Shown: positions 2,608 through 27,010 of the stretch, piece after piece
How the letters are laid out: the number at the start of each line of letters is the position of its first letter
Position numbering within the stretch: position 1 is the first letter of the stretch
Source: Takakia lepidozioides
Taxonomy: Eukaryota; Plantae; Bryophyta
Reading direction: 5' to 3'
DNA length: 64,000 nucleotides
Assembly (NCBI GenBank): GCA_030704615.1
Contig: CM060731.1
Coordinates: forward strand, 71,238,001 to 71,302,000
Notes under the pieces: model-generated
What the model was told of the DNA's origin: nothing
The model's input: only the letters and a program-made list of their open reading frames with translations
Databases searched by the model: none
Made by a program: the position numbers and the translations under genes

Positions 2608-4108
2608 ATGCTGAGGATGTTGACACTCCGGGATCGAGTCGGGCGCGCCGCGGGTTGCCCCCTCGCGGGCCACCCCGTCCAGCCACGTCCACCTTTGACC
2701 CCCCCCCCCTACAGGATTGAGTGTTGGTGCACTAAGTGTTGGGAACGGATACCGCCGGGCGGCACCAGACCACCGAGGTGGCGACCGCATGTTGTCGAAA
2801 AACATTACAAAAAGAACAAGATTGCGGATGCGGCAAAGATGAGTGGTTTTTCCCACCCCTCTCATTAACATTCATCTAAGGTACATTTAGGTTTATCTAA
2901 TAATATAGTATGATTGGTAAGCATACATGAATCAAAATTACGACATAAGTATTGATGCATCGTTCACTATGCACATTGCAGCCACGACTTGATGCCCAAG
3001 CTCACAATCACATTGCACAGGAGGCATTTCGCGCCGGTCTACTTGCAGAATTTGTGCCAGAGCATGTGCCCGATGTGACCAGTTGGTTCCCCCATAAGCA
3101 TGTAGATGAGATGCGTAGGGTCGAGGGGTGTCGTAGGTGTCGCAGGCGTTATGGCCGGTGACGAGCAGGCCTACCCCCCCACCCTCCAGTTTCCTCAGGC
3201 GGTCCCCCTGATTGTGGCCTCCCCCCCCCCCATCTATTTCTTTGCCTGATCCACCTCCGGTTGTACCTGATCCGGACGTTGTACCCCCGGCTGCACCTCC
3301 GACATTACATCTTCAACCACCTCCACTTTCATCTCCTCCGCCAGCAGTACCACCTCCACCACCACCACCACCACCTCCACCTCCACCTCCATCTCCACGT
3401 GCATGTGCCCCTCGAACCCCTAGGAGGGGTCGGCTTCGCCCTAGGTTTCCTCCCCTTCGGCTTGGGCGGCCTGAGCCGAATCCTCGCCCCCGATGGGAAG
3501 CGCATAGGAGGTTACTGAGGACCGTCCAGCCTCGTTGTTGGGGGAATCATCTCGACCCTCCCACCCCCATCCGAGAAAATGTGGAGTTCGAGTATTGGGG
3601 GAGACGGTATGTTGTGAGAGCCGTTACAGACCCTGCTATGGGTCAGGGTTTATTCACGGTCAATGATATTGTGGTTCCTCCTCGGAGAAACAACATGGTA
3701 GACTTGTTTCCCTACTACGGTCCATACTACACCTCCGCGGAGTTCCGTACATTATGCCTCGAAGTCCCATACATCCTACCCTACATTTTGTGTGTCAACG
3801 GACAGGATGTACGTAGACGGGGGTTGTCTCCCATTGAGATCAGATTTTATGATGGTGACCCCGACATCTTCGGAAATGTTGTTGGGCTGGTCAATAGTTC
3901 TTTTGGTCATCCTAGGAGAACCAATGTAGTATGGGACGAGCGAAGCGATGGGCATGAGAGCTTTTGTGGTCATACGTCAGTATACTGTGAGGGGATGCAC
4001 ATGTTTGTGATGACATGTGCTAGTAGGACTATTAGGGCTGGCAATGAACTATTTGCATTATACGAGTTCTCCCGGGATGATTGGGACCTCCGATTACAGT
4101 GTGAGTGA
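2608..4108 (+). pseudogene. CACTA-borne gene: CxCxxC...H (transposase-associated-like) motif, Pro-rich linker, SET domain (3608-4063). Upstream exons disrupted; SET-containing ORF 3212-4108 open
   Basis: SET motifs in order: MGQGLFTVNDI, PYYGP, DIFGNVVGLVNSS, RTNV, ASRTIRAGNELFALY. Likely intron 2881-2981 (AAG/GT...CAG). Stops at 2866 and 3159, and a frame change in the poly-C tracts. Confidence 0.75.
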
Positions 4109-5177
4109 GATGTGTATGATAGAAATAGGGTTCCTTTGAGACAGGGATCGCGTAGAGAGACATTGTAGATATTCTCATGATGTACTTTGTATACATCCGA
4201 TTAATCGATTGATGTAAATTTTTTTCTTGTTGCTCGTGTGGGTTGTAATTTTGCATATGTGATCTAAACATACTTATGCACATGTGGACCAAATATGAGC
4301 TTGAACCAAGTTGATTCAATGGGTCATTCTAGTGTTGAACGCAACTACGTGCCATAGAGACGGAAAATTGTGTTTCGCCTGCAGATGATTTTTTTTTATT
4401 CCATTTTCAAGCCATATGCTTAATGATAGCATATGCAATGTGCGTGCAAAATTTGGGAGTAAACAAAAGTCATTTGGACCCATAACCAGATTTTGTTCTC
4501 TCATTTGCACTCCAAAGTTGAGTTATCTTCAACTTCATGCACTCTTTACAGAGAGTTCTGCAAAAGTGACCCTAGAAACACACTTATTTTTTTTCCATTT
4601 TTTTTTTGTCCCATTTTTTGCATGGATGTAGTGGTGCAAAGCTCGATGTCACAGAATAAAATAGAGATAAGAATAAAATCATTACGCACCTCAAAACCGC
4701 AATCATATATTTTTTAAATGCAAATATTTATTTTAAATTCATTTAAATTCGATTTAATTCAAAATTGGTGCTAGGGTGAGTGCGTCGTTGGGGAGGTAAT
4801 GTTTTTAAAAATATATATATTTTATTTATTTTTTCTGCTGGATCTTTGTACAGGTGTTGCACACATATTTAAGCACATGTAGGAAAAAATGAAGCTTGAA
4901 CCACATCCGTTTGTTGGGTGCAATGGCATGAGAGGATTTTCTTTCACATTAATAAACAAAAATTGATAGGGTGAATGCGACATTGGGGGGGCAAATGATT
5001 TTGTTTGGGTTTGATACTTTGCATGCGTGTACGTTACGCACATACATGTAATTATTGAATGACATATTTGATGCACACACACATTGAAGGTTGTTGTTTG
5101 CATTTCGCTTATAATGAAGTGTATGGTTGCAAGGACACATTATAATATATGTCCCTATGTTCATTTGTTCGTATCAG

Positions 5178-5813
5178 GACTTTGTCCATCCCTTCCCGGT
5201 CTTTTCTCTTGGCACCCCATCCGAAAACAACCCAAGTACATTAGGCGGAAGCCGTGGGCGAGACGCCGCCCCCACGGTACCGGACGATGATGACGATGTC
5301 AGTAATAGTGACAGTGACAACAACAATGAGCATGGAATTAACCAGGAGGATGTGCAAGCCATGGATGATCTCTTAATGCATCATGTGGGCGCTGATGCAT
5401 CCCATGAAGAGGGAACCCGACCAATCGATGATCCTGAAATGGCCCCCTCAAATGACATGGAGAGGGAGGCGAGCGATCCCTTGTACGAAGGAGCGAAAGT
5501 GAGTCGACTTTCAACAATCTTACTTTTGCTCAATCGTCAAATTCGATTTGGCATAAGTAATGTTGGGATGTCTGCCATAACGCGAACTATTGCAGACTAT
5601 ATCCTTGCTCCACACTTGAAACCCAAGATGCCACAGTCGCGGAAAGAGGCGTGCGAAGTCTTGGACTCTGTAGGGATGGGCTATAAGATTTTTCATGCAT
5701 GTCCATGTGATAAAACCCTATACTATGGAGAGGATTCGCATCTCACCAAGTGCCCAAAGTGCAAGAAAGACCGATATCGGGATGATGTCCAAAGGAAAAA
5801 AGTACCACGCAAG
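5178..5813 (+). pseudogene. CACTA transposase (TnpD/Tnp2) N-terminal fragment; DDE core absent
   Basis: DPLYEGA...GMGYKIFHACPCDKTLYYG...CPKC..DRY...KKVPRK is the characteristic pre-catalytic region. It stops at AAG/ATATAAG, which looks like a mutated GT donor. Confidence 0.85.
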
Positions 5814-5888
5814 ATATAAGCGCCATTCCCTCTCGCATGGAGATTATTAGAGAGTAGTACTCATGCAAGGTCCACAACAACAAGCTAA

Positions 5889-6035: not shown

Positions 6036-6600
6036 TTGGATTTATGAGGCCGGGGGTCGCAAACGGCGACGGCCATCCGTCGCCAACTGCGACTTGTTTT
6101 TTTGAATGGATTTATGAGGCCGGGGGTCGCAAACGGCGACGGACAGCCGTCACAAACTGTCACATGTTTTTTTTGTTTTGAAAGAATAGGGCAGCCGGGC
6201 AGTTTGCGACGCCCGGCCGTCGCAGGGGCCTTTTGCCCTTCATGTCACCATGCGACGGCCGGGCGTCGCAAGAAAGGGCTGCGTTGAAAGAAATGGCAAG
6301 AAATGGTTTTTTTTTTCCAGCGTGCGACGACCGGCCGTCGCCAGAAAGGGCTGCCTTCTGCCCTTCGCTAGGGGCGACGCTTAGGCGTCGCATGGAAGGG
6401 CTGCCATTTTCCCTTCATCACTCCGTGCGACGGCCAGGCGTCGCCGCCTGGCCCCGGCGCCAGGTTTCACTCTCGCGGGTTTGGCTACGACGGCTCGGCG
6501 TCGCAAACACGCTCTGCGGGGTTGGCGTCGCACCCTCGGCGCCGCGCGGGCGTGGGGGCGCGGTTGGCGTCGCAAACCCCCCCCCCCATTTGCTGTAGTG

Positions 6601-7957
6601 CATGCTTTCTTTTCTCAGGACCAGGTCAACACCGTTATGGGTCCTCAAAGAGGGAACTCAGGCTACCAGCAGCTTCTTCAAAATATCCTGCTTCCATGGA
6701 TCCATAACCTGACCGCGGGCCCAGATCATGGTTTGTCTAACAGTTGGATTACTTGTTCCAACAATCCCAACCAAGTGATCTACATCACTGATTCCAAATC
6801 AGATCACTTCATGGGGCTGGTGATGAACAAATTAGACCTCTCCAACTATCTGCACCTTTCATCCAGGGCCCCAGCCGTTATCTCTGGTGGACAATTCACT
6901 CTAGTTAGAATCTGTCACTGGTCATCAAAAGACAAGGATATGAATCCTATGGCTCCTCTTGGCCAGCCAATAGCTTCATGGCTCTCTTCTCAATTGTTTC
7001 TATGGGTAGAGGGAGGCCCTCTCATGGGTCTGGTGGTAGACCCTAAAGAATGGTCTTGGGATTTTGAACCCTCCCGACCTTCGTTCTTTAACTATTCAGC
7101 CAAAGCTGCATACCGCTCCACGTTGAAACCAAACCAATGGAACTCTAAATGGGCTGGGCATGGTCTTCAACAAGCTAATTGGAACCTCATCTGGTCTCAT
7201 ATTTGGATCAAGGTCAGACCAACGAAGGTGGCTGCGTTCCTTTGGCAACTCGCTAACAGGGTTCTCAAGGTCGGGGCTTGGTTGTCATTCTCAGAGGCAC
7301 TACTCTGTAAATGCTGCAACCTTGGTATCTCGGAATCAATTGAGCATTGCCTCCTCCTCTGTACCATACCCTCTAAAACTTGGCCTCGACTCCTTCCTGT
7401 TATGCAGATATGGAAACCAGGGTCACCCTCTTCAGTTCAAAAGCTTTTAAATTATGACCCAACCTAGTGTATGATTCCTTTAGGTCTATCGCGTTGTGGA
7501 ATATATGGAAGGTAAGATGCAGTTGGACTCTAAATCACGAGAGAGGTTGTCTCTCTATTTTACTGTCTACAATATTTCATGAGGTCCAAATTGAGGCAAG
7601 AAAGGCTTGGGTCAAAATGCATGGCGACATCAGTAGGGATCCAGAGGCTGAACCTGGGCTTCTCAGGAAATTCCAAAGATCTTGGGGCAGAAACGAGTTC
7701 CTATGCAGCTGCTCTTCGACGTCAAGCTGTCAATGGTCCAAAAGCCCACCAAACTCCTGGCAGTTCGCAGCAGCTTCGTTGCCTTGAATCACCCGAATTT
7801 GAAAGGGAGGTCAACTGGAAACATATTGGTGGGAAGCGCTCCACCAGACTCTGCTTCGACTAGTAGATCTCCATGCAGGCTTCCTCTTTGCGATCGGCAA
7901 ATTTTTTTCCCTTTCACTTAGTTCCGCCCTTGTCTGCCCTTTCTATCTCGTTTAGTT
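6601..7957 (+). mobile_element. L1-clade LINE, 5'-truncated ORF2 end with zf-RVT; 3' UTR interrupted by the Gypsy insertion
   Basis: WSHIWIKVRPTKVAAFLWQL...CKCCNLGISESIEHCLLLC and LWNIWKVRC motifs in ORFs 6481-7467 and 7467-7787. Confidence 0.85.
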
Positions 7958-8375
7958 TGTCATGGTTTTAGTCATGGTTATCTAGAATTACCTACTTCTA
8001 GTTAACTAGGACATTTTAGATATTTATATTTATATTTTGTGTGTTGGGACTTCATTTGGTCTCACATGCCAAGTGAGGTGTCGAGCCTCACTTGAGACAT
8101 GGAGATAGGTTTTCCCCTTGTGAGTGTTGAGGAGGCTCATCTTCTTGTAGTTGAGCCTCCATGAGCTTCTCTCACCTCCATAGCTCTAGGTATTGAGAGG
8201 GAGTGTGTTGAGGGCTTTGTAGGGTGGATTCCTTTAGCAAAGGTGCCCTTGGCTTGACTTAGTTTATGTGATAGAGTGGATTTCACTTGGAAGGACTAGG
8301 GCTTGTTCTTCATGTGATTGCTTCATGCTTTGAGAGCTTTCATTGTCTTCTACTTCTCTCATTTCTCATCTCTTA
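7958..8375 (+). repeat. 5' LTR segment (418 bp), matching 14485-14902; the LTR-like block may extend to TGACA at 9372
   Basis: Direct comparison shows about 3 mismatches. Starts TGTCA. Confidence 0.9.
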
Positions 8376-9419
8376 TCACTACAAGAAGATCACCTTATGC
8401 TTGTGAGTGCGGAGTGTAAGGATTAGTTTTGCACTTGTATTTTAAAGAGGTTGAGAGCTAGGAGAATTTAGCTCTTGTATCACAAGGCTTGCAAGGGGTT
8501 GCAAGGAAAGGTGCTCGAGTATTGCATGCACCAAGGAGTTGGAGAGCTTGAGAAGAAAGCTCTTGAGTCACAAGATTTTGCAAGGATTGTAAGGAGGAAG
8601 TCTTGTGTGTGTGGAAGCATGGATTCTAGGGTTTGAGAATCCTTTGTATGCATCACGGAGTCGATGGTGTGCGTCATGGCTTGCGGAGAGTGACTAAAGG
8701 CTTGTTAGTGCTCATTTCACTATAAGCTAGGGTTAAGCAAGTTCAAAGTGTGGATGTTGTGGAAGAGAAGCCAATGAGCTATATATGCTTGGGCTTGAAG
8801 ACAACAAGGGCAAGCACTTGGAGAGCACTAAGAAGTTCAAGAGGTTTTGAAAGGGAGCATATGAAGAAATCTTCCAATCATGGTGGTGTGGAGCCAAGCT
8901 TAGGGTGCCATTGGAAGGGCTTGGAGAACATGTGGTGGGAAATTCTTGAAGGGAAATCATCATTCAATGTATGCATAGCTTCACCCTAACTATGTAATGT
9001 GACAAGAGGGGGAGGAAATACTTGGCTATTCATGCTCTTGGTAGTGCGAGCTTTGTGGTGGATAGTTGACCAAGCAAGTGGTGCATGTGTGGAGCATGCT
9101 CGCTTGAGTTTGTAAGTTCAAGTTTGAGAAGGGGAGCTCTTGAACTAGCAAGAGGTGAAGGCCTTTGAGATCCATTTGTGTGTGAAGTGGAGAGGTGTTG
9201 ATTCATGTTATGATGAAGGAGAGCAACACATAGGCCAAGAGGTCATGAAACATGCATTCAAATGACCACGGGGAGCACATGGATGATGGATTGGTGCAAG
9301 ACCCCAAATGAGGCATATGGCGTGAGAGTGGGATCCAAGGCGGATTGCTTATGAGCATTATTGTAAGTGACAAACATTGCTCCTACACATTGAGATAATT
9401 TGTGTTGATTTGGAGCAAT

Positions 9420-9650
9420 TGTCACGACGTGAGTTGGCCATTGGACTACAGCCGGATCACCCTACAGATGGCTCAGTGATGCGAACCAAGGCCATTGTGA
9501 CAGACGCGGTCTCTTACGATGTCCTCGTTGGTGGGGCAGTGTTATATCCTATGGGCTTCACCCTGGACTTTTGGGAGGAGTCAGCATCCTACAGGCCTGG
9601 ATGGCAGTGAGGGGATGGTCGTCGTGCACAGCTCCCTGTGATATTCATTG
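9420..9650 (+). pseudogene. C-terminal half of a retropepsin-like aspartic protease
   Basis: AIVTDAVSYDVLVGGAVLYPMGFTLDF fits the D-x-L-x-G C-terminal protease motif. The catalytic DxG and gag are not seen. Confidence 0.55.
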
Positions 9651-10002
9651 GGGGTATTGCGGCTGCCCAGCGGGGCAAGATGCCAACACTAGCCGCCTTT
9701 ACAGCTGCAGTTAGTTGGCTTGGAGAGTTGCTGGAAGGCAATGCTCATGCAAAGGATGTGCCACCTCCAGTAGAGCAGGATGACATGCATGGTATGGCGG
9801 AGTTGCCTGCCATGGTTGCTCACACTCCATTATGGGGTACGAGAAGGATTTGCAGCAGGCTGCTGATGGACGGGTACAACAAGCCTGGGTAGAGGCCTTC
9901 GTACCGTCAGGAGAAGATGAGAGTGCGGTGATTGCACCATGACCACCTCAGTTGTCGCCATTGGACACCACACCTCTTGTGTGGCAGTGCCCGGATGAAG
10001 AC

Positions 10003-10945
10003 ATATGCCTTCTGGACTTGTTTGGCGGGATCAACACTGGATTGGCTGCAGTACTGCAGGCAGGTGTACGAGTTCGACGTTACCTGTATGTGGAGAGGGA
10101 TGAGACTGCACGACGCATCTCACTGCGCCATGTTGCTCAGTTGGTACAACAATACCCTGATTTGTTGCCAGTGTCTGCAGTTCGTGGATACCAACAAGCT
10201 TTGCCAGCAGACATTTCGTTGCTGGGGGCGCAAGATTTGGAGCGGGTTGGCTCCGTTGATCTGGTAGTGGCAGGTTGGCCCTGCCAAGGGCATTCATCAG
10301 CCAAGCATGGCAATGGATTTTGAGACTCGAGGACGAGTCTATTTTGGGAGATGGTGCGGATTTTGCGCCACTTGCAGCTTCATCAAGCTGTATCTCCAGC
10401 ATACATCTTGGAGAATGTGCCACTGATGGGTGATTCTCGGGCTAGGGTGATGGCCAGTGTGCATCAAGTCCGGTCGTGGCTTGGGTCAGCAGTGTTGCTG
10501 AATGCAGCTGCAGTGTGGTCATGGGCTCATCGTCCACGGCTATGGTGGACTAACTTGATGCCACCCGCACTGCTCAAGCGTGCATTTGATGGGGTGCAGC
10601 GGCCAGCACACACAGTGGATAACATTTTGGACACAAGGAGACAGTCTCAACGTGTGAGACACGATGACCGTTCGCCTTTGGCAGTGGTCAACAGGGTGGG
10701 TCAACCACGAGCAGCATTACCTACACTGCTCAGCTTCCCAGGATCCCATGCTTTTCGGGATGGTGGACCTGGCCTCTTGTGGGATAGCCAGTTGCAACAA
10801 TTAGTGGAGCCCAATGCTGACGAGCGCGAGCAGGCGATGGGTTTTACCACAGGTACCACGGCGGTGCCATCTCTTTCTGAGGCATCACGTGTTGGGGCAA
10901 GCAATGGATCTCAATTGCTTGACCTGGATTATCAGTTTGACTATG
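10003..10945 (+). pseudogene. C5-cytosine DNA methyltransferase domain (DNMT3-like, canonical motif order) inside Gypsy pol
   Basis: Motif I LLDLFGG, II YVERD, III ADI, IV DLVVAGWPCQGHS (Cys codon 10282-10284), V SLFWE, VI YILENV, VIII AHRPRLWWTNL, IX EREQAMGF..GTT, X VLGQAMD. One stop at 10321 and one frameshift near 10888. Confidence 0.93.
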
Positions 10946-11368
10946 GCTGAGCAGCGCAGAGTACGGAGTACACTTCCCTTCATGGTCTCCCTGCCTACCG
11001 AGACGGTACAGGCAGCGAGTGGGGGCGAGCAGGTAAGGACCACGAGGTGTAGGCCGCATCCATGGCACATATGGGAGGTGCTCGAGGTTCAGAAGGAGTT
11101 GGCAGCCAAGGCGGCGGTGATGGATCAGGTTGGGGATTTTTCTCGGATTGAGGAGGTCCTCAAGGATGAGATGATGGGGCAGGATGAGACATTGTCACTG
11201 ACAGAGGAGGCAGTGGTCACTGCTCAAGAGGTTGCAGCATAGCAACCACAAGACGCGTCTTCTACCTCTAAGCCTGCTCGACTCAAGGTTGCAGTCACGG
11301 AGGACAACTGAAAGCCTGATGTTGGACCTATAGTCACCGGAGGAGAGAGACGACGTATACGGCGGTTC

Positions 11369-12130
11369 TTGAGGGCTTACAAGAACTGCTTTGCCTTCAG
11401 TTCGAAGGACTTAGGAGCACTGAAGGGTCAAGAGATTCGCATTGAATTGGCTACTGACACGCTAATCTTTTGGAGACCCTATAGATACAGTGACATGGAG
11501 AGGTCCTTGATTCAGATGAGAACTCATGACCTTTGGGAGGCTGGTTTGGTGGAGCTATCTGGGGGAGAGTATGCTTCAGCCACAGTGATGCCAACCAAGA
11601 AGGATGTCTTTGGCAATTGGACGGAGAGACGTATGTGCGGTGATTACCGGCCTGTAAATCGTCAGACCAAGTCCGATAGGTATGCCATGCCAACACCAGA
11701 GGAGATCTTTGATGCCATCGGGTATGCCAAGGTCTTTAGCACGTTGGATTTACGATCCGGATATCACTAGTTGCCGATCAAGGAGGCGGATAAGCAAAAG
11801 ACGGCATTCTGGGGGATCAATGAGCACGGGAAGGATTGCCTATACCAGTGGCGGTTCTTACCATTTGGGCTTAAGAACGCTCCGGCAGAGTTTCAGAGAG
11901 TCATGGACAGGATTCTAGCAGGGGTGGAGTTTGCTCGGTGCTACATAGATGACATCATCATCTTTAGTGCTACGGTGGAAGAACATGAGAGACACCTTCA
12001 GGGGGTATTTGAGCGCTTGAGGGCGCACAGATTGAAGTTACATCCGGGAAAGTGCAAGTTTTTCCACAACCAAATTGAGTATCTGGATCACATGATATAT
12101 CCTGGAGGATTGGGGGTACAGCAGACTAAG
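11369..12130 (+). pseudogene. Gypsy reverse transcriptase
   Basis: RMCGDYRPVN, LDLRSGYH*L, KTAFW, LPFGLKNAPAEFQRVMD, YIDD, KCKFF. In-frame stop at 11768. Confidence 0.97.
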
Positions 12131-12349
12131 GTAGGTCCATTGCACAGGTTCCATGCCCCACGGATGTGAGCCGAGTTCGAGCTTTCTTGGGGTTAGCAAA
12201 CTATTATAGATGGTTTGTTAAGGGATTTAGTGCCATTGCAAAGGCTCTATTCAAGCTGACCAAGGTGGACCAGGAGTGGCAGTGGGAAGATGAGCAAGAA
12301 CAAGCTTAAGGCGAGGTTGACCTCGGCGCCCATCTTGAGACGACCTATC

Positions 12350-12722
12350 AGGGGGCGTCCTTTTTAGTTGCATACAGATTGGAGCATGCTGGGGCTTGGA
12401 GCGGTGCTCACACAGGTGGATGATGAGAGAAGAGAGTTCGTAGTGGCTTATGCTAGCCGCTCAAACAACGTTGCAGAGTCTAAGTATAGCTCATATGAGG
12501 GAGAATGCTTAGCTGCAGTGTGGGCCGTGGCACACTTCAGGTGCTATCTATACGACAATCTCTTCACCCTTGTCACGGATCACCAACCACTCAAGTGGTT
12601 GATAGAGTCAGACAAGCTTACGGGGAAGCTTGCACGGTGGGCACTCATCCTTCAAGAGTATGACTTTCAGGTGGTGCATCGACCGGGTTTGGTCAATCGC
12701 AATGCAGATGGGTTGAGTCGCA
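12350..12722 (+). pseudogene. Gypsy RNase H
   Basis: HTDWS..GLGAVL, VAYASRS, YSSYEGECLA, TDHQPLKWL, RWALILQEYDF, NADGLSR. Confidence 0.95.
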
Positions 12723-13079
12723 ATCCATGCACGAGCCACCAGGATGACACTGGAGCTCGGTGGCATGGTGAGACGGACGAGGAGATGGTGCCCGGATGAC
12801 ATGCATCTACATTTCTGTGTATCTTGGCAGCGGAAGGCCAGGTTGGACCTGCAACAGGGATGACTGTAGATCAAGTGTCTGAGGACCCTGAGGCCAGCAA
12901 TGAGCAAGATGACGCCAAAGATATACATGAGGATTCAGTTGTGTTGGACTACCTCCGCACTGGAGACACTGCAGCCACTATGACTGCCAAGGAGAGGGAT
13001 CGGATCCTACAACGAGGCAAGAGGTTCAAGTGGGAGGGGACACACCTGCTCCGAGTGTGGGAGGATGGTCGAGTGAGGA

Positions 13080-13940
13080 TTGTGCCTCACCCAACACAGC
13101 GGGCACGGTTAGTGCGGCATGCCCATGAGGAGTTGGGGCATTTTGGGGTGCGACGCACTCATAGTCTTCTCCAAGTGGATTGAATTGGTTCCATTGCCTG
13201 ATAAGGCTAGTGAGGGAGCTGCGTATGCATTCTTGGATTGTATGCTTAGCCGATTCGGTGCTCCAGCTGAGGTACTCACGGACCAAGGGAGAGAGTTCTT
13301 GGGGGAGTTTCAGGCTTTGTGTGACAAGGCCTTGATAGAAAACCGCACCACTTCTCGGGATCATCCTGAGGCCGATGGCTTGGCAGAGAGAGTTGTTCAG
13401 ACAATAAAGAGGGGTTTGCGCAAGTATGGCTTGCAGAAGGGACACCTAGGAGATTGGGACCTTCAGTTACCCTGGTTAGCCATGGGCTATAGGTTCAGCA
13501 AGCAAGCATCACTTGCCTCCTTCTCACCATACTTTCTTCTCTTTGGCTGAGAGCCGGATTTGCCTACATCCATTCACAGAGAAGCTGCTACAGTTCTTAA
13601 CCTTGACGATCCGGACGTGTGGGCACGTGCATGTGAGCAACGTGCAGAGTTGTTCAAGAAAGTCATGCCCATGGCTTTCGAGAACCTTGCCATTGCATAA
13701 CATCGTGATACGTTGAGGTATGCTACCATACGTGGTGGGGGCTATCGTCCTGGGGTTTGGAGATTCAACCCTGGTGACTATGTTTATCTGCAGCAGACTG
13801 CTCCTACGACCTTGGATGTGACTGCAGGACGTATTATTTTGAGGATTCGAGAGGTGTTGCCATCAGGAGTCCTGATCTTGGAGGGTCGGGATGGCATGAT
13901 TTGGAAGGACCATGTGCGTAATTGCGCGCCATGTCACCTT
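13080..13940 (+). pseudogene. Integrase with an internal deletion
   Basis: HAHEELGHFG zinc-finger half joined directly (frameshift ~13170) to FSKWIE...TDQGREF...HPEADGLAER. The CxxC pair and first catalytic Asp are missing. Confidence 0.92.
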
Positions 13941-13997
13941 CCAAATGTTGATGGAAGGGTTGACCCAAACCTGGCAGTGGTACCTGCAAGTTTGAGG

Positions 13998-14132
13998 TGC
14001 ATGTTGTGTGGGTCTACTAGAGGGGCAGCCACCATGCTGGTGTGTGATCAATGCTCTAGATGTTGGCATATGAGATGCTTGACTCCACCTCTTGAGATGG
14101 TTCCTGATGAGGATTGGTTATGTCCGCATTGC
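13998..14132 (+). CDS. PHD finger (C4HC3) at the integrase C-terminus
   Basis: CMLC...MLVCDQC..CWHMRCLTPPL..VP..DWLCPHC; all eight zinc ligands are present. Confidence 0.93.
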
Positions 14133-14386
14133 ATTGGATAGTGGGAGTGGATACAACCATGGAAGGCTAACAAGAAATGCAAGGCCAAGCTACTAGGAGA
14201 CCAACACACGAGATCCTGACTCAAGTTCACAGATTGCAAGACGGTAACTAACGATGGGGTTGCTCTTGTATCCGGCCTCTTGGTCTATAGAGTTTGAGTA
14301 CAATAGGGACAGTGATAGAGGACTTAGTACGGCTGTGGCTATTACATCTTGTAGCTATCTGGAGTTAGAGGACCTAACCACCAGCT

Positions 14387-14396
14387 AGGGGGGCGA
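14387..14396 (+). promoter_or_regulatory. Polypurine tract
   Basis: AGGGGGGCGA followed by one T and then TGTGG at 14398. Confidence 0.7.
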
Positions 14397-14484
14397 TTGT
14401 GGTATAGCTTTCTAGGACTGTGTGCTTAGATTGTGTGGTGGACAGCGATGTATGTTGTGGCACGATGCTTAGGTGCACGACAGC

Positions 14485-14956
14485 TGTCATGGTTTTAGTC
14501 ATGGTTATCTAGAATTACCTACTTCTAGTTAACTAGGACATTTTAGATATTTATATTTATATTTTGTGTGTTGGGTATTCATTTGGTCTCACATGCCAAG
14601 TGAGGTGTCGAGCCTCACTTGAGACATGGAGATAGGTTTTCCCCTTGTGAGTGTTGAGGAGGCTCATCTTCTTGTAGTTGAGCCTCCATGAGCTTCTCTC
14701 ACCTCCATAGCTCTAGGTATTGAGAGGGAGTGTGTTGAGGGCTTTGTAGGGTGGATTCCTTTAGCAAAGGTGCCCTTGGCTTGACTTAGTTTATGTGATA
14801 GAGTGGATTTCACTTGGAGGGACTAGGGCTTGTTCTTCATGTGATTGCTTCATGCTTTGAGAGCTTTCATTGTCTTCTACTTCTCTCATTTCTCATCTCT
14901 TAGATTGTGTGGTGGACAACGATGTATGTTGTGGCACGATGCTTAGGTGCACGACA
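14485..14956 (+). repeat. 3' composite LTR: 418-bp copy of the 5' segment fused to a copy of 14425-14482
   Basis: 14899-14956 equals 14425-14482 with one mismatch. The junction has CTTA microhomology. Confidence 0.88.
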
Positions 14957-15464
14957 AGTTACTTTTCAGAGTTCAGAGGTTATCTGAAATCCCAATTTGC
15001 AGCCGGTCCAGGCTCCCTTTCCTACGTACATCCCTGTCTGCACTTCCCCACTTTTCTCCTCCATTGCTTGCTAGATCAATGCTTATTCTACGCTTCTTCT
15101 TCCCCTATAGCAGACGGTCCAGACTACTCTCCTTCTATATGCTGCATGTAATGGGGTTTTCTCTTCATCGCTGTTGTAGAACCCATCTTCCATTGTTGAC
15201 AATCTCCCGTCGCAATTCTTCTCTCTCTGTTGAAAGCTCGCATCTCGTGAGCCAAGCCATAGCTAGGCTCTAGGGGTACCTCTTGAGTCTAAACTAATAC
15301 TTTCATCCACTCGGATGGTTTTCTCGTTGTTAAAAGTATCTCGGGTTTGCCCTCACCGAAAGGTGTGTATGCCTTATGGCCCCACAGGGGTTTATTTTTT
15401 CCCCAGAAATAAATTATCGGGGCTTCATCCCCTTTAAAAAAATAGAAATAGAAATAAAATAAAA
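14957..15464 (+). mobile_element. Probable remainder of the L1 3' UTR with A-rich tail
   Basis: Pyrimidine-rich continuation after the TSD; AATAAA near 15408; tail AAAAAAATAGAAATAGAAATAAAATAAAA. Confidence 0.55.
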
Positions 15465-16264
15465 GCTCTCATTGTTGAATAATTGGGAATTTAAGGCTCA
15501 CGTGTGAGAGGCCTTTTCTCTAGACTTTTGCAAAGTGACAAGGGATCAAGAAGGAAATCCAATATGGGGCACCATTGACTTCCCCACATGCCAGGCCAAA
15601 TGGGCGATCTTGTAAATAACATCTAGAGATGAAAATTTATCATAATGCCAAAATTTTGGGACAAGGCACTTTGAAATGTTATTGTGCACTTACTTACCAG
15701 AGAAATTAGATAACAAATATCACCTCATGGGTGTACTTGGGAAAGAAGCCAAAACATGACAATTTATTCCCCAAATTTCACATAAAAAGCAGCCTAACTT
15801 TTCGGAATTTTGGTCTGATAGTTCTTTAGGTGCCACATAATCAGAGTATGGAGGGCCCGTGTCTCGGGAAATTCAACTCGACTGTGGTGAACCCAACCCA
15901 ATTTTTCCATGCAATTTTGGAATATATTTACAAATTGGGACAGGGATAGATTATTTTGCTATAATCTCCCAAATGCAATGGTAAACCTGCCTACAGTTTT
16001 GACAGGACGTGGATGTAGTAGATATGCACATAAGTATATGGTTCATCCCCACGGATGATTGGGGGTAAAAAGTTACACCCTCATCCATGAGGGCATGCAC
16101 ACTCCTTTATAGTGGGCCCATCAAAAGGCTCGTCATTTAAGGGTTAAATAGAAAAGGAAGAGGGTTCGCTTGTTCGCTCTGGGAGGACTGTTTCTTCCGT
16201 TCAACGGATTCAGCACCGCAGCTCTGCGGACGCCATGCCGTGCGACAGGGCCTTTATATGAGCC

Positions 16265-19200
16265 ATGGCTGCTCCACCCTGCACCCTGCTCTTTGCTGAA
16301 TCCTTCCAGCATGATCGCTTGTGCGAGCACGTTGACGAGGTATGGGCGTGTTGCGTCCTCCCTAGTCTTTCCCTGCTTCACCCTCTCGAGATTTCTTTGC
16401 TTTAGGGTATTCTGGCGCTCGTAATTGCGTGGTTCCTCGAATGTGCGCTTTGAGGAGAGGCACCGAGGCTATGTTCATAATTGAAACCCGTGGAGATTTT
16501 TTTAATGTTATTTCATTGAAGTTGTACGACTGTAGAAGGATGGCACTGGGTTCTGGGTTCTAGGGTTGGGTCAATGTGCTTCCAGCGAGTGTCAGAGTTG
16601 CTATCTACTGCAGTTTAAAGCAATTGTTGGGAGATTTGGTGCATGTGACGCTGGGGTTTAGGGTTTAGTAATCATCAATGGCCATAGTTCTCTCCATTTT
16701 CCATCTTTGGTGAACTACCCAACTTATAGTGGAAAGTAATTTTAGATTTTTTGTCCTCCCCTCTCCCCTCCACGCCCCCTCCTCCCACCCTCTGATGACT
16801 GCAGGAATATTGTCCCCCAATCCTTTTAAAAAATTAGAAGGAGCTATGCGGGTATTCCCACTGTGTCTTTTGCATAAATGGGAGAAGCTGGCGAACCTAC
16901 TTAGAGCCCAAAAGGTAGAGAGTACTTCTGTTTGCACTGAATTATAGCTACCAAAGAATTCGGTTTCCTTCCTTAGTTAATGCTTTTATCCTCCTTCGAA
17001 TTTCTGTAATATGTGAGGTATTTTTCATACAAATCTCCTGATGTGGACAATGAATAATGTTTTTGAAAAACTTGGGGAGGTGTGGCAGGTTCGATTTTCT
17101 GAGCCCGTGGTGATCAGTGCATGTGAAGTGGTTGAGCTGCATCAACCTTCTCTCTGCCCTTCTGTCTCCTTAAGAGGGTTAGTGCTTCTGACCAGTATTC
17201 ATACTTGCATGCTTGCCTGAACTATATGTTTGTGAGGCACATGCTTTTAGACTGTTTGCAATTGAAATCATGCAGAAGGCAACAGTTTGTCAATATCTAT
17301 ATGCATTTGGGACATTGTCAAATTCAGTGGCAGGTATGCTTTTTACTCTGCTGGGGGGGAGTGCAGGATTAGCAGTCCAGAGTCTTGTGCAGTAGAGATA
17401 TATGTGCGCAGTGGAGGAGATTCTCGTTTTCATCACCTTGGCCCAGCCTTTCTGCATTCCCCTGCTGCAAGTGCTCTCCTTGATGTGCAGGTAATACCTT
17501 TTCTGTTTGCTTGTTTCCTTGGTTGCTCGTGATGGTTAGCTGCAGCTATGTCCACTGTTATTGGGTTGAAGCTATGCCCTTACTTCCTCATGCAGTTTGT
17601 ATCAATCTTGACAGTCAACCATTTATTAGGATTGCTGAAAATACTATTCTGGCTCACGTTAAATCCATATTTATCTCTTTAAGTGCAGGCAGCTGTAACT
17701 GAGCATGTGGTAGTGCGAGGCAGCTACCGAGCACTCACGCTGCTAATTTTTGGCAACCTTGCCAGTGAGCTTTGCTCAGACTCTGACTTGGACCGCAATG
17801 TGTCCTTACCTGGCATTGAGCATCTGGGAGAAGCACAACGTGTCCACCCTCCCAAAGTGTCACCGCTGGGTTGCCTCCAGCTGGTGGTGCACCCCAATGC
17901 AGAGCATGTGCAGCTACTGCAGCGCCTGCTGCATTGTGTGGGGAATGAAGATACAGCCCACCACCTGGTGCCAGCTCTCCTGGCAGCAGCAGCTGCCTGG
18001 CATCTATCACAGCAGCATGCTGCCACAGGGGCCCCATGGTGTGCTGCTGCAAAGCCGGGCCTGCTGGATGGCCCAGTTGGGCCCCTTATGGGTGATGTAA
18101 GGCAAGAGCTGGACGAGTTGCAAGAATGGGTGCAGCAGAGAGAAGAGGAGGGCAAGGTGACCACAAAGGACAAGGACGAGCAAGTGCTGCTGCACCTCAC
18201 ACTACGGTGGTTACGGGCTGGTCTAGAGGCTTCACCTGTGCTGCACTCTCCACTCTCCCCTGTACTGTACTCACACTAACCATTTCTCTTCTCTTGTTAG
18301 GGACAAGTTGTGTTTTTCCCTGCTGGATCCCGAGTTGCTGATAGTTCTGCCAAAAGCCGTTTGATTAGGGAACAGTGTCATTCCACTATGGTCAATTATG
18401 AGGGAGGGATAGGCTTGGGCTGGATGTGATTGGGATGTGGTAATGTGTGTAGGAGTGCAACTGACGGGCAGTGTGCTGCAGGTGGAGAGAGTCATAGGGG
18501 CCCTTGCTGCTGCACAGCTTCTCTGCAGTAATGATGGACAGGGGGTGCTACCATTTGTGGAAGCCGGTGGAATGCAGCTCCTACTACAGATAGTGCAGCA
18601 AGTGGCCGGGGCAACTGCACTGCTGTTGTTTGCACTCGCCACCGTGGAGTGTGCATGCCGCCATGGGTGTGCCTGTGAGGCTCTGGTGGCACAGGGTTAT
18701 ACACCACTGCTTATACTCGTCCAGCAACCTCAACGACCACCTGTGGTGCAGCTTCTGGAACGGATCCTGAAACGCCTTCACGTCTTTCAACTGGCCTCTG
18801 CTTTGCAGGTGGTTGCTTGTTACTGCAGTGGTATAATATTCCAGTTCTTCTACTTGAGACAACATTGTTATTGGGAGGTCCAATTATTGTGATTGTGTAT
18901 AATACGAAAGGGGGTGGTACAATACTGTGCGATGATGTTAAATGGCAAACAATTTGTCACTGTCACTTACAAGATTTAATTTGACTAATTCTGTCTTTGG
19001 CAGTTGACTGCCGAGCAACTGGTTGACGAGGGACAAGGAGACGCTACTGACGAGGGTGTTGCCCTGGAAAAAGCAACCTCTCTGTTAAAGCAGCTTTTGG
19101 TAAGACTGTCAATAGGATGCTTTTGTGTTACGTGGAATGTGGCAGGCTTTGGACTGATGTGATTAGCATCCTTGGGGATTTGCTGGACTCGCCTTATTTC

Positions 19201-22200
19201 CCTGGTGGGGTGTGCGGGCTGGAGAAACAGGGTGCGGTTGGTGTCAAGGGGTTCTTGAAGGAGGAGTGGTGGGTGGCCCTTGATGCGGAAAAAAATAAGA
19301 AGGGCTTGTTGCCTTTTGCGGTGTATGGAGGCACTATCACATCAAAGGCGGCTGTTGCACCCCAGGATACTGATCCCGCAGTGCTATCTCTGCTGCAGGT
19401 GTGGTACATTTTTGTCATGACAGTTTTAGGTTGTGAGAGCATGCTTGGTTTCTCACCGTGAATAATGTGCTGATGGGATCCTGAAGGTGCACCCCTCTTT
19501 GTTGGAATGTAGGCGGGACGTTTGCTGCCATCGTTGGCAACATTAATATCTGCTCCCATAATATGGTCATTGCAAGAAGGCCTGACAAATACATGTGCCG
19601 ATTTTGTGGCCGTCGTTCAGACTCTTGTGCTTTATCTTCTCAGCTGCCGCTCAGGTCTGCCCACAACGCTCTGCTACCCTTGGACCTACGTTCGTGCAAT
19701 ACCATTTATTGCTTCCACTTTTATGAAACTGTATTTTGTGAGTCTTTTCCAAGTGTCCATGAGTGGAACACACCTGCTACATCCCAAAAAATTGAAGTTA
19801 AGCTGACTCTAGGATCTGATTACCAAGCCCTTGAACTTGTTGTATCTGAAGCGTTTTTGAAAACTTTGATACTGGTAGGGTGCATGATGTAGCTGTGTTT
19901 TGAGTGGCAGGGTTGTTATTTCTTGCTTCCGATACAAAGGCAGCAACAGGTATGGTAGCAGCCCTGAGACGTATGCAGGAAGTGCAAGATACCGATATCC
20001 CACCCCTACGTCATGCAGCAGCACTCTCCTCCTTGGGATTCCTATGTCATCCTCATCACATTGGCGGGATACTTCATATCAGCCTTTCTGTGGTTGGTTC
20101 TTCCGTCCTGCCTATTGTTTGCTTTATATGAAATCTGTATATAATCTAGTGCTTGTGGTCCTGAGACGGTTCAGGTGGATGCTAGTACTTGTTCTGACCA
20201 AGCTTGATGCTGATTTGCGCAGATCAGTGCAATGGATCGCTTGGTTGGAGCAGATAGAGGATCGGAGGCTGAATTTTGGGCTCTTTGGGACCTTGCTGCT
20301 ATATCAAGGTCCCTTTTATAAGCCTTTCCTTGGTGTATAGTGGGGATTTTGTTGCCGTGTAGGTATATAGGAAGTGAGGAGCAAGTAGATGCTTGAATTT
20401 CATCATAATATCGGTGGTCATTTTGTTGGCTTGATCCAGGATGGAGGCTGGTAGGCAGGCCGTCTTGGTGGTCACATGGTTTCCAGAGGTAATTCAACCT
20501 GACTTCACCTTCCTTTGGCTTGTTTGGGAGGTGCGAGAAAGGAGGTCTGACACCTTCCCTTTCATGTGCAGGTGATGGCAGTGCTCATAGAAGCTCTTCA
20601 CCCTGGATCTAAGCCTGCACCGGCAATGGGTGGGTGCTATTTCCAGCTAGTGTTGTTACAATATTCTGGTAGTTATGGGTCATAGTACGGGCTAAGCAAG
20701 ATTAGGGTTTCCTTGTGCGCAGGAATGGGGGCAGCAGGCCACTTTGCCGCAGTAGTATTGCAGAAGGTGCTCTGGGATACGTCACCCACGACCCTGGTTG
20801 CATGGACACCACATGCCCCAGCTTTGCAGCTTGTCTTGCAGGCAGCTTGCAACTGTGGCCGGTTGCTTGAGTGGGTGGAGGCAGCTGCGATTTATGAGAA
20901 GAAGGGGGCAGTTGGGCTTCTCAAATATGCAGCTGGTCTCAGTGCAATGCAAAATACTAGTGCTGGGCTGCACGCAGATGGTTCTATACACAACAATGAC
21001 AGTCTACGTGATCTGGCAGCTGGTAATGAGCTGCCTACGGTGCTCAGCAAAGGGGTGACCCCTCCCCTGATGCCTGAGTCAGCCATGCGCCCATTGACCA
21101 TTGCTTTGCGTCTCTTGGCATCTGTATCCTCTGATCCGGTATAAGCTCTCAAAAGCCTCCTGTCTTTTGCTATTTCAAATTTGTGTTATTCTACAGTTGC
21201 TTTTCCCAAATGTATTGGTGTGTCCACTGAAGAAGCTGACTGATAAATTACTTTTTATTGGGCTATTTGGAAGGCTGTTGCGGCGGTGCTCTATGAAGAG
21301 GGTGCCATGGGTGTGGTGTATGTTATACTGGAGCACTGTGCGGCAGCTTTGCAAGCGCCTCCAAGTGGTTATGGTAAGCTCTTACCCTATGTAGGACTGG
21401 TTGTTTTCTCCGGTGTTCTTTTTGAATTTGGAGATGAAGCAGGAAGAGTGGTTTGTTGAATGCAGAAGAAGAGGAGGGGGAAGAAGAGGAAGGGAGGGTG
21501 GAGGAGGAGCAGAAGGAGCATGTACTGCTAGTCTTGTTGTTGCCTACCCTCTCACTATTGCTATCCTTGCTTCAGCGCCTTCAGGTCCGTTCCCTATTCT
21601 CTTGTTGTAAGTGGGAGTGAAGCATCCCGACTAACTGTCAGTGGTACCAAACACTGCACTGCAATGCCTACTGTAGCTAGTTGAAGGGTATATCAATTGT
21701 TCCCCGTGATGAAGGCATCATAATTTCCTTGCATGTATAGATGTGATTGATTTGTCTTAGACTATGAGTTTCTAGGTCACATGAGATGGCCTTTCTCTGA
21801 CTCAGGTCGTTACTTGGAGGCATTGCTTGGTCATAATTTCAAAGCTTTTTCTGGTGTTCAGGGTGGTATCCTCTGGCTATGTTATGCTGTACTATGCTCT
21901 TTAGGCCAATGCTTATGGGCAGAGGGTCTCTTTTTGTTTTTGTCTTCTGATCTCTGAGGGCTTTTGTGCAGACTAAGTACTCCTGTGAGAGTTGGACAAC
22001 CCTTGCATGTATCAGACCTTGACAGCTGGTTGGACATCTCTGGAAGTATTTGTGCAGGGGGCAGTGCAAGTATATCGGAACACAAGGCTGGTAGACATTT
22101 TAATACGCCTTCATCATGGTGTCAGGTACCTCCTTTTCAGCTTGTTTTGCATTGCTATGGCTGGGAATTGGTAATGGTTACTGATTGTGGTCAACATGTG

Positions 22201-25200
22201 GGAGTCTGTGGCAGCACAAAAGCAGGGTCGTATGGAACAGTGCCACCATATGCATGGGCAGGGGGAGTGTTAGAGGTGGGAGCTGTGCGCCAGCTGTTGG
22301 CATCTCTGCTGGCTTGCTGGCCCATCTTTGGATGGACCCCTGCACTGTTACCACGACTCCTGGGATCCCACTCGACCTCTCTGCCTGTGGAGCCTGGAGA
22401 AGCTTGCAGTGTGATCTGCCTTTTGGTGCCTATTTTTTCCCCTGATCTATCATTACCGTCAGATTTGTGAGGAGGCCTTCGGCTGTCAAGTAGATCAGGA
22501 TATGACTTTCTGCTCTTGCTCTTTCTCCTCTGGCAAGTGGTGTACTTGCTGACTGACCCGAAAGAGCGATTTCTTCTGCAGGAAGATTTTCTTCCATCAG
22601 AGTGCCCATGCCTCTGTCTGAGCAAAACTGCAGTGAAGGATGTGTATCGAAACATGGCTGTTGGCAGTATGTTGGGGGTGGGGGTGATGACTGACGTGCT
22701 GTGGCATACGCTGCCCACCAATGTGGAAAAAATGCTTTGTGCACTGTCCCCTCATTTGGAGCAGATTGCGCATGTCATTCTACATCTTGCCCCATCTGTA
22801 TGTGGCGTAAACTATTTTTTTGTGTCCTTTTCTGCTGCAGTTCCTCTTTGTGTCCACTTCGCAGGACTAGATTATGGTTGAAGTTCTTAGAGCAGAGTGC
22901 AAACACTCCCTTGGCAATTGCCTATTGCCACACATTTAGAGAGTACAATCGCTTCATTGAGCATGTTTACACTCTCGTGCTTTCTTTACCGGAGAGTTTG
23001 TCACCATACCCTCAATCATATCATATCCATCAATCTTGTGAAGGTTTTGTGTGTCAGGAAGATGGATGTCTTTTAGTTGTTTGTCTACAATGATAATATA
23101 GTTAGCTGGTTTCCTCCATGAACTAGCTATTGTGATTATAGTGCTCTTGACATACTCTACAAAGCTATGGACTTAAAGAGAAATAGAATGTAATAGTGGC
23201 ATTCGGGTGTAGACATGTGAGTTGGTCCAGGAGAGGCTTACGAGCATGTTAGGACGAATCTCCTGGGCAAGTGTGGAGCATGCTGCTGTTTTTGTGCGCC
23301 CTGTGCTCGCCCTTCTTCAACAGCACATCTCAGCGGCCTCAGTTCTTTCTGATATCAATATTCTTCAGGTAGTCATTGCACCAGCTGTAGTTAATTGGGT
23401 TAACCTTGTGGGGTATTGTTGTCATTCTATTTGCTGTCGAGATTGGGTTGGAAGCTTGGTAGCTATGTTGCAGTTGTGACGCGCCTTGGACACATCCTTT
23501 GGGCCAAAAAAAGAAGAAGAAGCAAGACCCTAGCTGAAGCAAGCGTTACTTATAGTGTCGATTCTCCCTGAAGGGCTACTGCCTTCTGTTTGGAGGGTGG
23601 ACACCTTCTAACGGCCGTAACCGAGGCAACGCGGTTGCCCAACCCTCTCCGAAGGACTCAAAAGTCCCCTGGTACCCACATGTTAAGTAGCGGGTTGACC
23701 AAGGTACCCCCCTTTTATGGCTCGGTCGTCCTTTGGTCATGGTAGAGAGATTGTACTCATAAGACGTTGTTTGCCGTAGCCTTGTGGCCATTGACCCCGC
23801 GCCCAGTTTGAGCGGGAACAAAAGGGACAGAACCTACCTCTGTCAGGGGCTGACGTTGGTAGTAAGACTTACCTTGATATATAGAATTAATCTGGGTTTT
23901 CCAGATATCCTCTAGAAATCCCTCACACAAGCATCAATCTGCTGTGTGTGATTTGCCCAAAAACTAGGCCTCAGGAGAGCCTGGGCTTTTGGCTCAGCCT
24001 CGAGACTTTCAAAGTTGGTAAACAGGGGTACAGGCACAATTCCCTTAATAGATTTGAAGAGAGCGTCTCTTTGGTGAGAGAACCCCGGACAGTGTATCAG
24101 AAAATGAATACTGTCTTCAGATTGCCCACACAACGGGCAATTGCACTCTCCCTTTCCTCTCTGCTTCTGTTTGCTGTTCAAAGGTAGGCTGCCTGCAACT
24201 CTCCACATCTTTGCCTTGATCCCACAAGACCAGAGGCGGAACCATAGGCCATCTCTCCACACTGAGAGAGAGAGAGAGTACTGTCATCTGCCTAGACAAG
24301 GCCCCATCATATTTTACAATCTCTCTTTTTAGCTTCAGCTTTGTCTTTACCGGTAGGAAATAGAAATTAGAGACTAAGTAGCCATATTCTAAGTTTCAGA
24401 AAGGTGTATCATTCATTGTGATAGTCAAGTTCTTAATGGACAGGATTATCAAACCAGATTACTTTCCAGCAAATGCCAAAGGAACTGTCTGTTGATACCT
24501 TAGAAGAAAGCATGTCAAGCCATCAACCTACTGATATTTTTTGAAGAGTTTTCCAAACACTTATGGTGAGAAGCCAACCCTCATTTAGAAAGTGTGGAAA
24601 AAGAAAGTCATCAGACATCAGCCACTCCTAGCTATCAAGGCAAAGGTGACGCGTTCCCTGGTCCCATGACAGCCAACCAGCAAACCAACAGGTTAGTGAT
24701 CCCTGTGGAACCCCAGGTATACGGCCTCACCTAGTTGCTATCCATGTCCCATGAGAGACAAAGGATACGGTCCTATGTCTAGATGACAAGCATAGCATTG
24801 CAGCACTTTAACAACAAGATCACTGCAAAAGAGATCGTGAGGAAAACATGGCTTTGGACACTACAGCCTCTAAGTAAGATTTATCCAGCAGGGTCAAGAC
24901 TTGCGGGCTAAGATTCAGATCCTTGAGAATCTCTTCTACTCTCTTCCGTCAGGACCTAGCCTGTTTGACAGGGCAATCCTGCTTCCAAGATATAGAGTCA
25001 ATGAACTTAGGATATCTGATGTTGGACGTGTTTCAGCTGACGCACCCAGCATGCTGATGTGCACTCCTTAAGCACCCCCACTTGAATGGATTCTAGAGAC
25101 TTAGCCTGGTTGGATTTATCAACCCATTATGCAGATGCGTACTCCAAGGCAGGTCTAATAACGCGACAAAGCATGGGTTTTTTGACCTCAGAGTCGATCC

Positions 25201-26960: not shown

Positions 26961-27010
<50 letters not shown>

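Follow-up and report, generated by a model that had tools for sequence, protein, structure and literature searches.

A Gypsy retrotransposon of Takakia lepidozioides with a DNMT3-type methyltransferase, split direct repeats and a candidate integration site inside its repeat

Layout and condition of the element

The window analysed here is a 64,000-nucleotide stretch of the bryophyte Takakia lepidozioides (assembly GCA_030704615.1, contig CM060731.1, positions 71,238,001 to 71,302,000 of the forward strand), and it contains a Ty3/Gypsy retrotransposon that encodes a cytosine methyltransferase of the DNMT3 type. The original prediction confined this element to 9420..14141, which is too narrow. 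The element has the layout A1-internal-B1-GC-A2-B2 (Table 1), and its split repeats, an internal palindrome that is the predicted integrase attachment (att) site and a self-priming site had all been overlooked. The repeats are as similar as had been stated, about 99%, but they are not two ordinary long terminal repeats (LTRs): they are split as A...B-A-B, the split direct repeats of the PAT/Ngaro type. The element has a primer-binding site (PBS) and a polypurine tract (PPT), yet its LTR, B-GC-A, occurs in permuted form, with A at the start of the element and B at its end. As in canonical Ty3/Gypsy elements, the termini are TG..CA and the target duplication is 4 bp, the latter found in all five copies with both ends (the window copy, L026, L027, L032 and L040); L026, which starts with TA, is the exception at the termini. 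Contigs of runs X1 and X3 contain an empty site (joint 7953->14957, four shared letters) which, together with repeats that are 99.3% alike, bears out recent mobilisation. This reading of the empty site is tempered by its possible origin from a paralogous copy of a long interspersed nuclear element (LINE), because the element was inserted into the tail of a relic that is LINE-like and has zf-RVT (its 3' part lies at window 6385-7467). Runs X1, X3, X5 and X7 are contigs, in which joints are neither phased nor countable. Contigs cover the element far more deeply than its flanks, but this depth is not a copy number.

Searches with profile hidden Markov models gave matches to PF00145, RVT_1, RT_RNaseH and PHD. 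The rve match (E 1.3e-6, 29 bits) fell under its cut-off (32.6) owing to the partial loss of the integrase core; the deletion at 13165 took away the first catalytic Asp and, of the zinc finger, the C2 half. The Pol of a relative has Ty3 Gag-Pol as its best match in the PDB (E 4.4e-98), with the reverse transcriptase (RT), RNase H (RH) and integrase (IN) in canonical order. A Pfam search with the protease (PR) remnant of the window gave no match, and in the intact relative L044 Asp_protease_2 was matched at E 2e-4. No Chromo match was found in a Pfam search of the window frames and L044, a PHD finger being present after IN. The two open reading frames (ORFs) of L044 contain rve and H2C2 and no tyrosine recombinase, and neither L044 nor L098 has a further ORF of more than 300 aa.

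The domain order PR-DNMT-RT-RH-IN-PHD proposed originally stands, protease remnant included, but the single polyprotein inside pol does not, the coding region being split by a conserved stop. The damage also exceeds the few stops and two frameshifts first counted: we found five frame changes (near 9843, 10888, 12134, 12307 and 13165), ten in-frame stops, of which nine are lesions and the one at 11240 is conserved in the family, and losses in gag and integrase. Through the deletion at ~9422 the copy lost gag as well as the protease's N-terminal half, in which the catalytic Asp lies, the alignment with homologues beginning at residue 736 of P0041, and the 5' leader (8391..9421) has no ORF of 100 aa. 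Contigs of runs X5 and X7 diverge from the window sequence at 9423/9424. The presence of such similar repeats around a heavily damaged coding region suggests that the copy moved in trans when already defective. We conclude that it is a defective, probably trans-mobilised member of a Ty3/Gypsy family.

Table 1. Features of the window (window coordinates)
Feature	Position	Strand	Evidence or remark
Whole element	7958-14956	+	layout A1-internal-B1-GC-A2-B2
Target duplication, left copy AGTT	7954..7957	.	sequence and empty-site joint
Repeat A1 (TGTCATG...TCA), left end of element, 3' part of LTR	7958..8378	+	415/418 identity to A2
Predicted self-primer, predicted RNA 5' end	8139..8151	+	13-nt perfect complement of 8378-8390
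Predicted PBS, right after CA of A1	8378..8390	+	complement of 8139-8151
5' leader, fused by deletion to mid-protease, gag lost	8391..9421	+	
Aspartic protease, C-terminal half	9422..9640	+	tblastn to relatives
DNMT3-type C5 cytosine methyltransferase	10003..10950	+	broken: stop 10321, frame change ~10888
Methyltransferase motif I, FGG	10021	+	
Methyltransferase motif IV, PCQ	10279	+	
Methyltransferase motif VI, ENV	10414	+	
Methyltransferase motif VIII, HRPR	10528	+	
Methyltransferase motif IX, ERE..MGF	10822	+	
Methyltransferase motif X, GQAMD	10895	+	
Conserved in-frame stop, TAG-CAA-CCA, ends ORF1 (gag-PR-DNMT)	11240..11248	+	predicted readthrough context
Reverse transcriptase, YIDD ~11942	11561..12135	+	RVT_1 E 1.3e-29
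RNase H	12356..12740	+	RT_RNaseH E 2.7e-34
DDE integrase, ~72 codons deleted at 13165	13090..13560	+	weak Integrase_H2C2; rve
C-terminal PHD finger and ORF2 stop	13992..14141	+	PF00628 E 5e-10
PPT abutting B1	14387..14396	+	kept before B in relatives
Repeat B1 (TTGTGG...CACGACA), 5' part of LTR	14397..14482	+	sequence
Palindrome GACA-GC-TGTC at B1/A2 joint	14479..14488	.	predicted integrase (att) site
Repeat A2	14485..14902	+	sequence
A2/B2 joint	14899..14902	+	35 nt short of precise A-end/B-start join, 4-nt microhomology
Repeat B2 (...CACGACA), right end of element	14903..14956	+	57/58 identity to B1
Target duplication, right copy AGTT	14957..14960	.	sequence and empty-site joint
Multi-exon gene, ARM-like repeats, low-complexity tail	~16235-32557	+	LINE-like relic inside, near 23700-27100
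Multi-exon gene	~39000-47100	-	by eye
Intact intronless PLS-E-DYW PPR RNA-editing gene	61711-63987		

The methyltransferase domain and its family

The six methyltransferase motifs lie in canonical, unpermuted order on the + strand without introns, as had been predicted, and the stretch 9943-10947, with the stop read as X, matches PF00145 at E 2.8e-12 (47 bits, cut-off 22). A family profile built from 21 stop-free related domains found human DNMT3A as its best match in the PDB (E 1.8e-21), with DRM at 1.8e-11 and M.HhaI at 1e-6. The predicted structure of the domain of one relative (mean confidence, pLDDT, of 94) aligned in Foldseek with DNMT3A/3B (TM scores 0.72/0.79). All 21 aligned domains share the catalytic Cys, the EN in motif VI, HRxR and motif X without variation. 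Between lineages the nonsynonymous divergence (dN) is 0.13-0.29 and the synonymous divergence (dS) ranges from 1.4 to saturation, so that by these sequence comparisons the domain is evolving under purifying selection; the decayed copies L004 and L019, where dN approximately equals dS, count against it. Motif IV reads WEC instead of WPC in 78 of the 115 scorable representatives (139 examined, P0320-P0458). The domain does not fit a host DNMT3 or DRM gene, as it is intronless and unpermuted and gave no match to DUF3444; in host plants, DNMT3 genes are multi-exon with DUF3444 and DRM genes have permuted motifs (PMC6453930).

The position of the domain was scored in 81 loci, comprising the best 80 of 113 metagenome relatives and L098. 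It lies after gag/PR and/or before RT in 54 and between RH and IN in 21, six being too short. The methyltransferase is thus an integral domain, as had been claimed, and no passenger; nor is it a one-off capture, since other copies of the family share it at the same position. A search with the stop-free part of the window's domain gave 39 proteins, of which the 18 with names come from Marchantia polymorpha (15), Calypogeia fissa (one) and Sphagnum (two). A profile search added KFL_009030040 of Klebsormidium nitens, with the order PR-DNMT-RT-RH-IN, five proteins of Closterium and the chlorophyte Hariotina reticulata, and yielded 528 cluster representatives at E 1e-30 or better.

Quick trees of DNMT and RT, rooted at the midpoint, with L083 removed by the coverage filter and the rows drawn from elements and not from host DNMT3s, were congruent. 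In both, Klebsormidium, Closterium, the bryophytes and the window element form a PR-DNMT-RT group (SH-aLRT, a likelihood-ratio branch support, of 96), apart from the RH-DNMT-IN elements with Hariotina. In the DNMT tree the window element groups with Calypogeia, Marchantia and Sphagnum with a support of 99. The congruence speaks for an old lineage, inherited vertically, in which the domain changed its position once. Of the two histories first offered, persistence or transfer, the first is therefore upheld by the trees and a recent transfer from an alga is not. The Marchantia element clusters with Sphagnum and not with Calypogeia, which may reflect paralogous lineages or a transfer between bryophytes. 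A bacterial or phage origin was rejected, viral and prokaryotic contigs giving weak methyltransferase matches only (17 and 5 loci, 22-53%, short).

Several members have features of their own. In the polyproteins of Hariotina reticulata (P0189, P0193 and cluster members) the DNMT lies between RNase H and integrase. Eight of the 21 RH-DNMT-IN loci (L057, L059, L060, L062, L063, L065, L071 and L077) match a C-terminal adenine-methyltransferase-like segment located after the PHD finger in P0033 and P0034, the query being taken from P0034. These loci would combine DNMT3-type, DAM-like and PHD domains, unlike the DNMT4-related chromodomain EpiLTRs described in the available part of a preprint (10.64898/2026.05.21.726589). 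L057:6118-11835 has a G-patch domain between DNMT and integrase. L098 is a complete eukaryotic Gypsy-DNMT3 element within a cyanobacterial metagenome-assembled genome of GTDB; its ends overlap by 127 bp, and it is most likely a binning contaminant.

The closest known system is KnitGypsy-Dnmt3 of Klebsormidium nitens, a Gypsy element with an intronless, unpermuted Dnmt3 (de Mendoza et al., 2018; PMC5890265; this and the papers cited below, by the portions of their text that were available). The window element is of this kind, sharing the order PR-DNMT-RT-RH-IN and the DNMT and RT clade; it differs in its land-plant host and in a conserved stop, probably read through, between DNMT and RT. A figure legend of that paper notes DIRS-like repeats, and the K. 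nitens layout is known from this legend alone. Neither a target duplication nor an att site is mentioned in the available text, which is also silent on priming and on how the element integrates, and its Fig. 4c may show details of ORFs and repeats. DNMT-bearing retrotransposons have been described from dinoflagellates and one charophyte (PMC5890265), later papers cite Gypsy-DNMT3 as belonging to "streptophytes" (PMC12344493; bioRxiv 10.64898/2026.05.21.726589), and an opinion paper of 2019 has transposon-encoded methylases absent in land plants such as tracheophytes (PMC6338049). Our search, outside which lay most subscription journals and Repbase, found no publication on a bryophyte or chlorophyte Gypsy-DNMT3, the readthrough split or an internal att site.

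A conserved stop and the possible role of the enzyme

In this clade DNMT and RT are in the same frame but not in the same ORF, and their fusion would arise only via readthrough. At the homologous codon, a TAG or TAA followed by CAR is present in 26 of the 28 sequences for which the marker could be located (of 60 examined); the two misses are L023 and L052, and further loci show the pattern as well. The background of CAR after a stop is 3.7% of 13,098 TAG/TAA. The full CARYYA is present in five of six distinct lineages (window, L024, L043, L044/L045 and L098). Less favourable to this pattern are the sixth lineage, a peat-moss-like family with CAACCC, one letter off the consensus, and the fact that most of the 26 sequences are related copies of that same family. 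Downstream of the stop 1047 codons are open in L043, L044 and L098, and upstream of it ORF1 of L044 comprises 1369 codons. The proteins of relatives end 70-137 aa past motif X, or their gene models are spliced across that spot. In the K. nitens gene model and in P0223 the stop is absent and DNMT and RT share one ORF, so that the split is derived. UAG-CARYYA is the readthrough signal of the tobacco mosaic virus (TMV) type, with readthrough of 32%, 11% and 9% reported for cassettes of TMV, beet necrotic yellow vein virus and tobacco rattle virus (PMC2754532). The window element shares the 3' context, and its RT-RH-IN-PHD part would most likely be produced when ribosomes read through the stop. 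The conserved stop thus places the DNMT on the Gag side, apart from RT-RH-IN-PHD.

Since the DNMT would be made at the level of Gag, its most likely role is to methylate cDNA within the particle before insertion. The abundant enzyme would act on new cDNA and copies would arrive pre-marked, a CG context being a guess. SymbioDIRS-Dnmt3, of a related type, methylates CG; in yeast the Klebsormidium domain methylated no DNA, a finding that speaks against an active enzyme and that its authors call inconclusive (PMC5890265). This inactivity, and WEC for WPC in most of the scorable representatives, would fit a catalytically idle module for DNA binding or structure. Such a role is quite improbable given the invariant catalytic residues and motif X in 21/21 domains, the purifying selection and the activity of SymbioDIRS-Dnmt3. 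That the enzyme acts only once the copy is inserted, its target being the integration site or host chromatin instead of particle cDNA, seems to us unlikely: elements of the chlorophyte-type clade have the DNMT fused in between RH and IN (21/81), where it could travel with the integration complex and the PHD finger, whereas here it lies on the Gag side of the stop, apart from IN-PHD, which fits a particle cargo better.

The best PDB matches of the PHD finger are CHD4, KDM5B/A PHD1, PHF12, PHF21A and UHRF1. The fingers of CHD4, KDM5 PHD1, PHF21A and UHRF1 are readers of H3 tails unmethylated at K4, and the finger of the element would probably steer IN to chromatin without H3K4 methylation. Avoidance of CpG in the promoter as an escape from self-methylation was considered and is not general, the observed/expected ratio being 0.06 in A1 of the window but 0.30 in L040, 0.47 in L019 and 0.85 in L098.

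Priming signals, the internal palindrome and a proposed cycle

The PBS follows A1 and the PPT precedes B1, so that by the logic of reverse transcription the LTR is B-GC-A. The predicted self-primer pairs with the PBS over more than the 10 nt taken to indicate self-priming (PMC6317226), and in a control the best of 232 25-mers reached 10 nt. The complement is kept, with other letters, in L040 (17 nt), L044 (16) and L098 (13), at 163-181 nt from the A start, and thus in four of five families tested (13, 17, 16 and 13 nt). In L040, L044 and L098 a TATA-like box, recognised by eye, lies 26-29 nt upstream of the predicted primer. The Tf1/sushi and Tcn1 elements likewise have a PBS after the 5' LTR that is complementary within the LTR, and some carry an in-frame readthrough stop, located between gag and PR; they have a chromodomain and normal LTR ends, whereas the window element has a PHD finger, a DNMT, split repeats and a stop after gag-PR-DNMT (PMC10085805, PMC6317226).

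The palindrome GACA-GC-TGTC is intact in the window and in L019, L040, L043, L059, L062, L064, L073 and L098. These loci belong to both of the deep clades. L026, L044 and L049 have variants that differ by transitions, and in run X1 it has a single listed variant, at 3%, in the GC spacer. The A/B joint takes at least five forms in run X1. In L032/L033 it keeps 9 nt of the primer site, in L026 it has a duplicated local insert and in L040 one extra base, and the window copy has a 35-nt microhomology deletion; judged by these sequences the variable joint looks like an end-joining scar. Five of the 11 scorable 3' ends continue as B-GC-A and six stop after B, L027 being A-internal-B with a target duplication. 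None of 12 distinct 5' ends is preceded by B.

From these observations we think it probable that the family encodes its DNMT3 before a likely leaky stop and likely integrates by cutting the palindrome inside its LTR. RNA would start within A1, and most ribosomes would end after Gag-PR-DNMT while a minority read through, so that particles would hold several times more DNMT than RT or IN. Self-priming as in Tf1, with priming at the PPT, would yield a linear cDNA, [B-GC-A]-internal-[B-GC-A], with ragged ends. Host end-joining would connect the end of A with the start of B, and would do so either before strand transfer, in a 2-LTR circle, or after it. Integrase would cut the palindrome after CA on both strands, giving two processed CA-3' ends with 2-nt overhangs, which would be inserted with a 4-bp stagger. 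A cut at the site of the 5' LTR would produce A-internal-B-A-B; a 1-LTR circle, or cuts at both sites, would produce A-internal-B, a dead end. The self-primer of Tf1 is reportedly not removed, and independence from precise cDNA ends is therefore a possible gain of internal cutting.

Some results do not sit easily with this scheme. No primer complement was found in L059, and the fold of the RNA from 8139 was not more stable than that of shuffled sequences (z -0.98). If a circle carries two equivalent sites, A-B-A-internal-B is also expected, the form seen in 0/12 and left unexplained by the simple model, and the A-internal-B copies could stem from later recombination between B1 and B2.

PAT/Ngaro retrotransposons, which use a tyrosine recombinase, have A...B-A-B split direct repeats. 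The window family shares this layout and, on the scheme proposed here, a circular or end-joined intermediate, but has a DDE integrase, a 4-bp duplication, a PBS and a PPT. A route like that of DIRS/Ngaro would involve a transcript through B2, with the B/A joint serving as template for circle closure, the A/B joint inherited, and the DDE integrase acting last. The equality of layout would follow from such a route, which would also explain the absence of A-B-A-internal-B, and the Klebsormidium repeats have been called "the same as that of a DIRS" (legend in PMC5890265). We nevertheless regard it as unlikely, as the PBS after A1 and the PPT before B1 are the ordinary places of LTR priming, and templated inheritance predicts otherwise than an A/B joint that varies within the family and keeps remnants of PBS and PPT. 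Troyka, an animal lineage whose LTRs are normal and whose ends are CG, was rejected as a match for the split repeats (PMC12440569).

A second alternative is that linear cDNA integrated in the standard manner and the split layout arose later, by tandem insertion or ectopic recombination. Recombination of repeats is common and A-internal-B copies are frequent (6/11 3' ends). In 5/5 copies, however, the target duplications lie next to the start of A and the end of B, in agreement with the empty site, no copy of 12 begins with B, and the TG..CA ends are the halves of the palindrome, which makes this origin highly improbable.

Cutting of the palindrome by the integrase, as we propose, has parallels. 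IS30 and IS911 transpose via circle junctions, and HIV integrase is said to cleave palindromic 2-LTR joints. The integrase of foamy virus cuts palindromic 2-LTR joints (PMC1180852). In foamy virus and HIV, as proposed for the window family, a DDE enzyme of the rve fold would act on abutted palindromic CA ends. The difference is that their palindrome is the joint of the true ends, whereas in the window family it is a fixed site inside the LTR and the joint of the true ends is not conserved.

The rest of the window agrees with the land-plant host that had been assumed. Among the best 120 listed matches of the PPR gene every named one is from a land plant; a quick tree of DYW-PPR proteins gave no well-supported set containing the window gene, and an exact look-up of two PPR starts gave no match. 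By the element's nearest named relatives, which come from liverworts and moss, the host would most likely be a bryophyte, a lycophyte or fern being also conceivable. The element's neighbours include two intron-rich genes. The first (~16235-32557), which gave only generic ARM matches in Atlas, we take by eye to be similar to virilizer, and the second (~39000-47100) resembles a ZIFL-type transporter of the major facilitator superfamily, also by eye. Of two host ORFs searched in Atlas, the other gave no match. A 75-bp repeat occurs four times (23744-23818, 26885-26959, 27001-27075 and 44040-44113), two copies being identical, and is possibly the 3' end of a LINE or a short interspersed nuclear element. 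Degenerate AT-rich tandem arrays occupy 56722-57466 and 58660-59615, with units of ~70-80 and 240-250 bp. By eye and with no Pfam match, 3212-4108 and 5118-5819 contain a proline-rich ORF whose tail is SET-like and a fragment resembling a CACTA transposase, bracketed by an inverted repeat (2071-2124/5889-5942). Decayed frames like those of a non-LTR retroelement, also with no Pfam match, lie at 54073-56276.

Overall, it could well be that a Gypsy lineage found across the green plants uses a fixed LTR palindrome and end-joined cDNA, and that bryophyte particles load DNMT3 at the level of Gag. The structure of the ends is relevant to the question of whether a circle with LTRs can serve as a productive intermediate; if the proposal is true, 2-LTR circles would be a normal intermediate of this lineage and not a dead end. 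Because of this arrangement of the ends, programs built to detect a pair of terminal LTRs would overlook the family or place its limits wrongly. Furthermore, the leaky stop predicts where, and in what amount, the enzyme is made, and the copies in Marchantia polymorpha bring the question of how the enzyme benefits the element into a genetic model.

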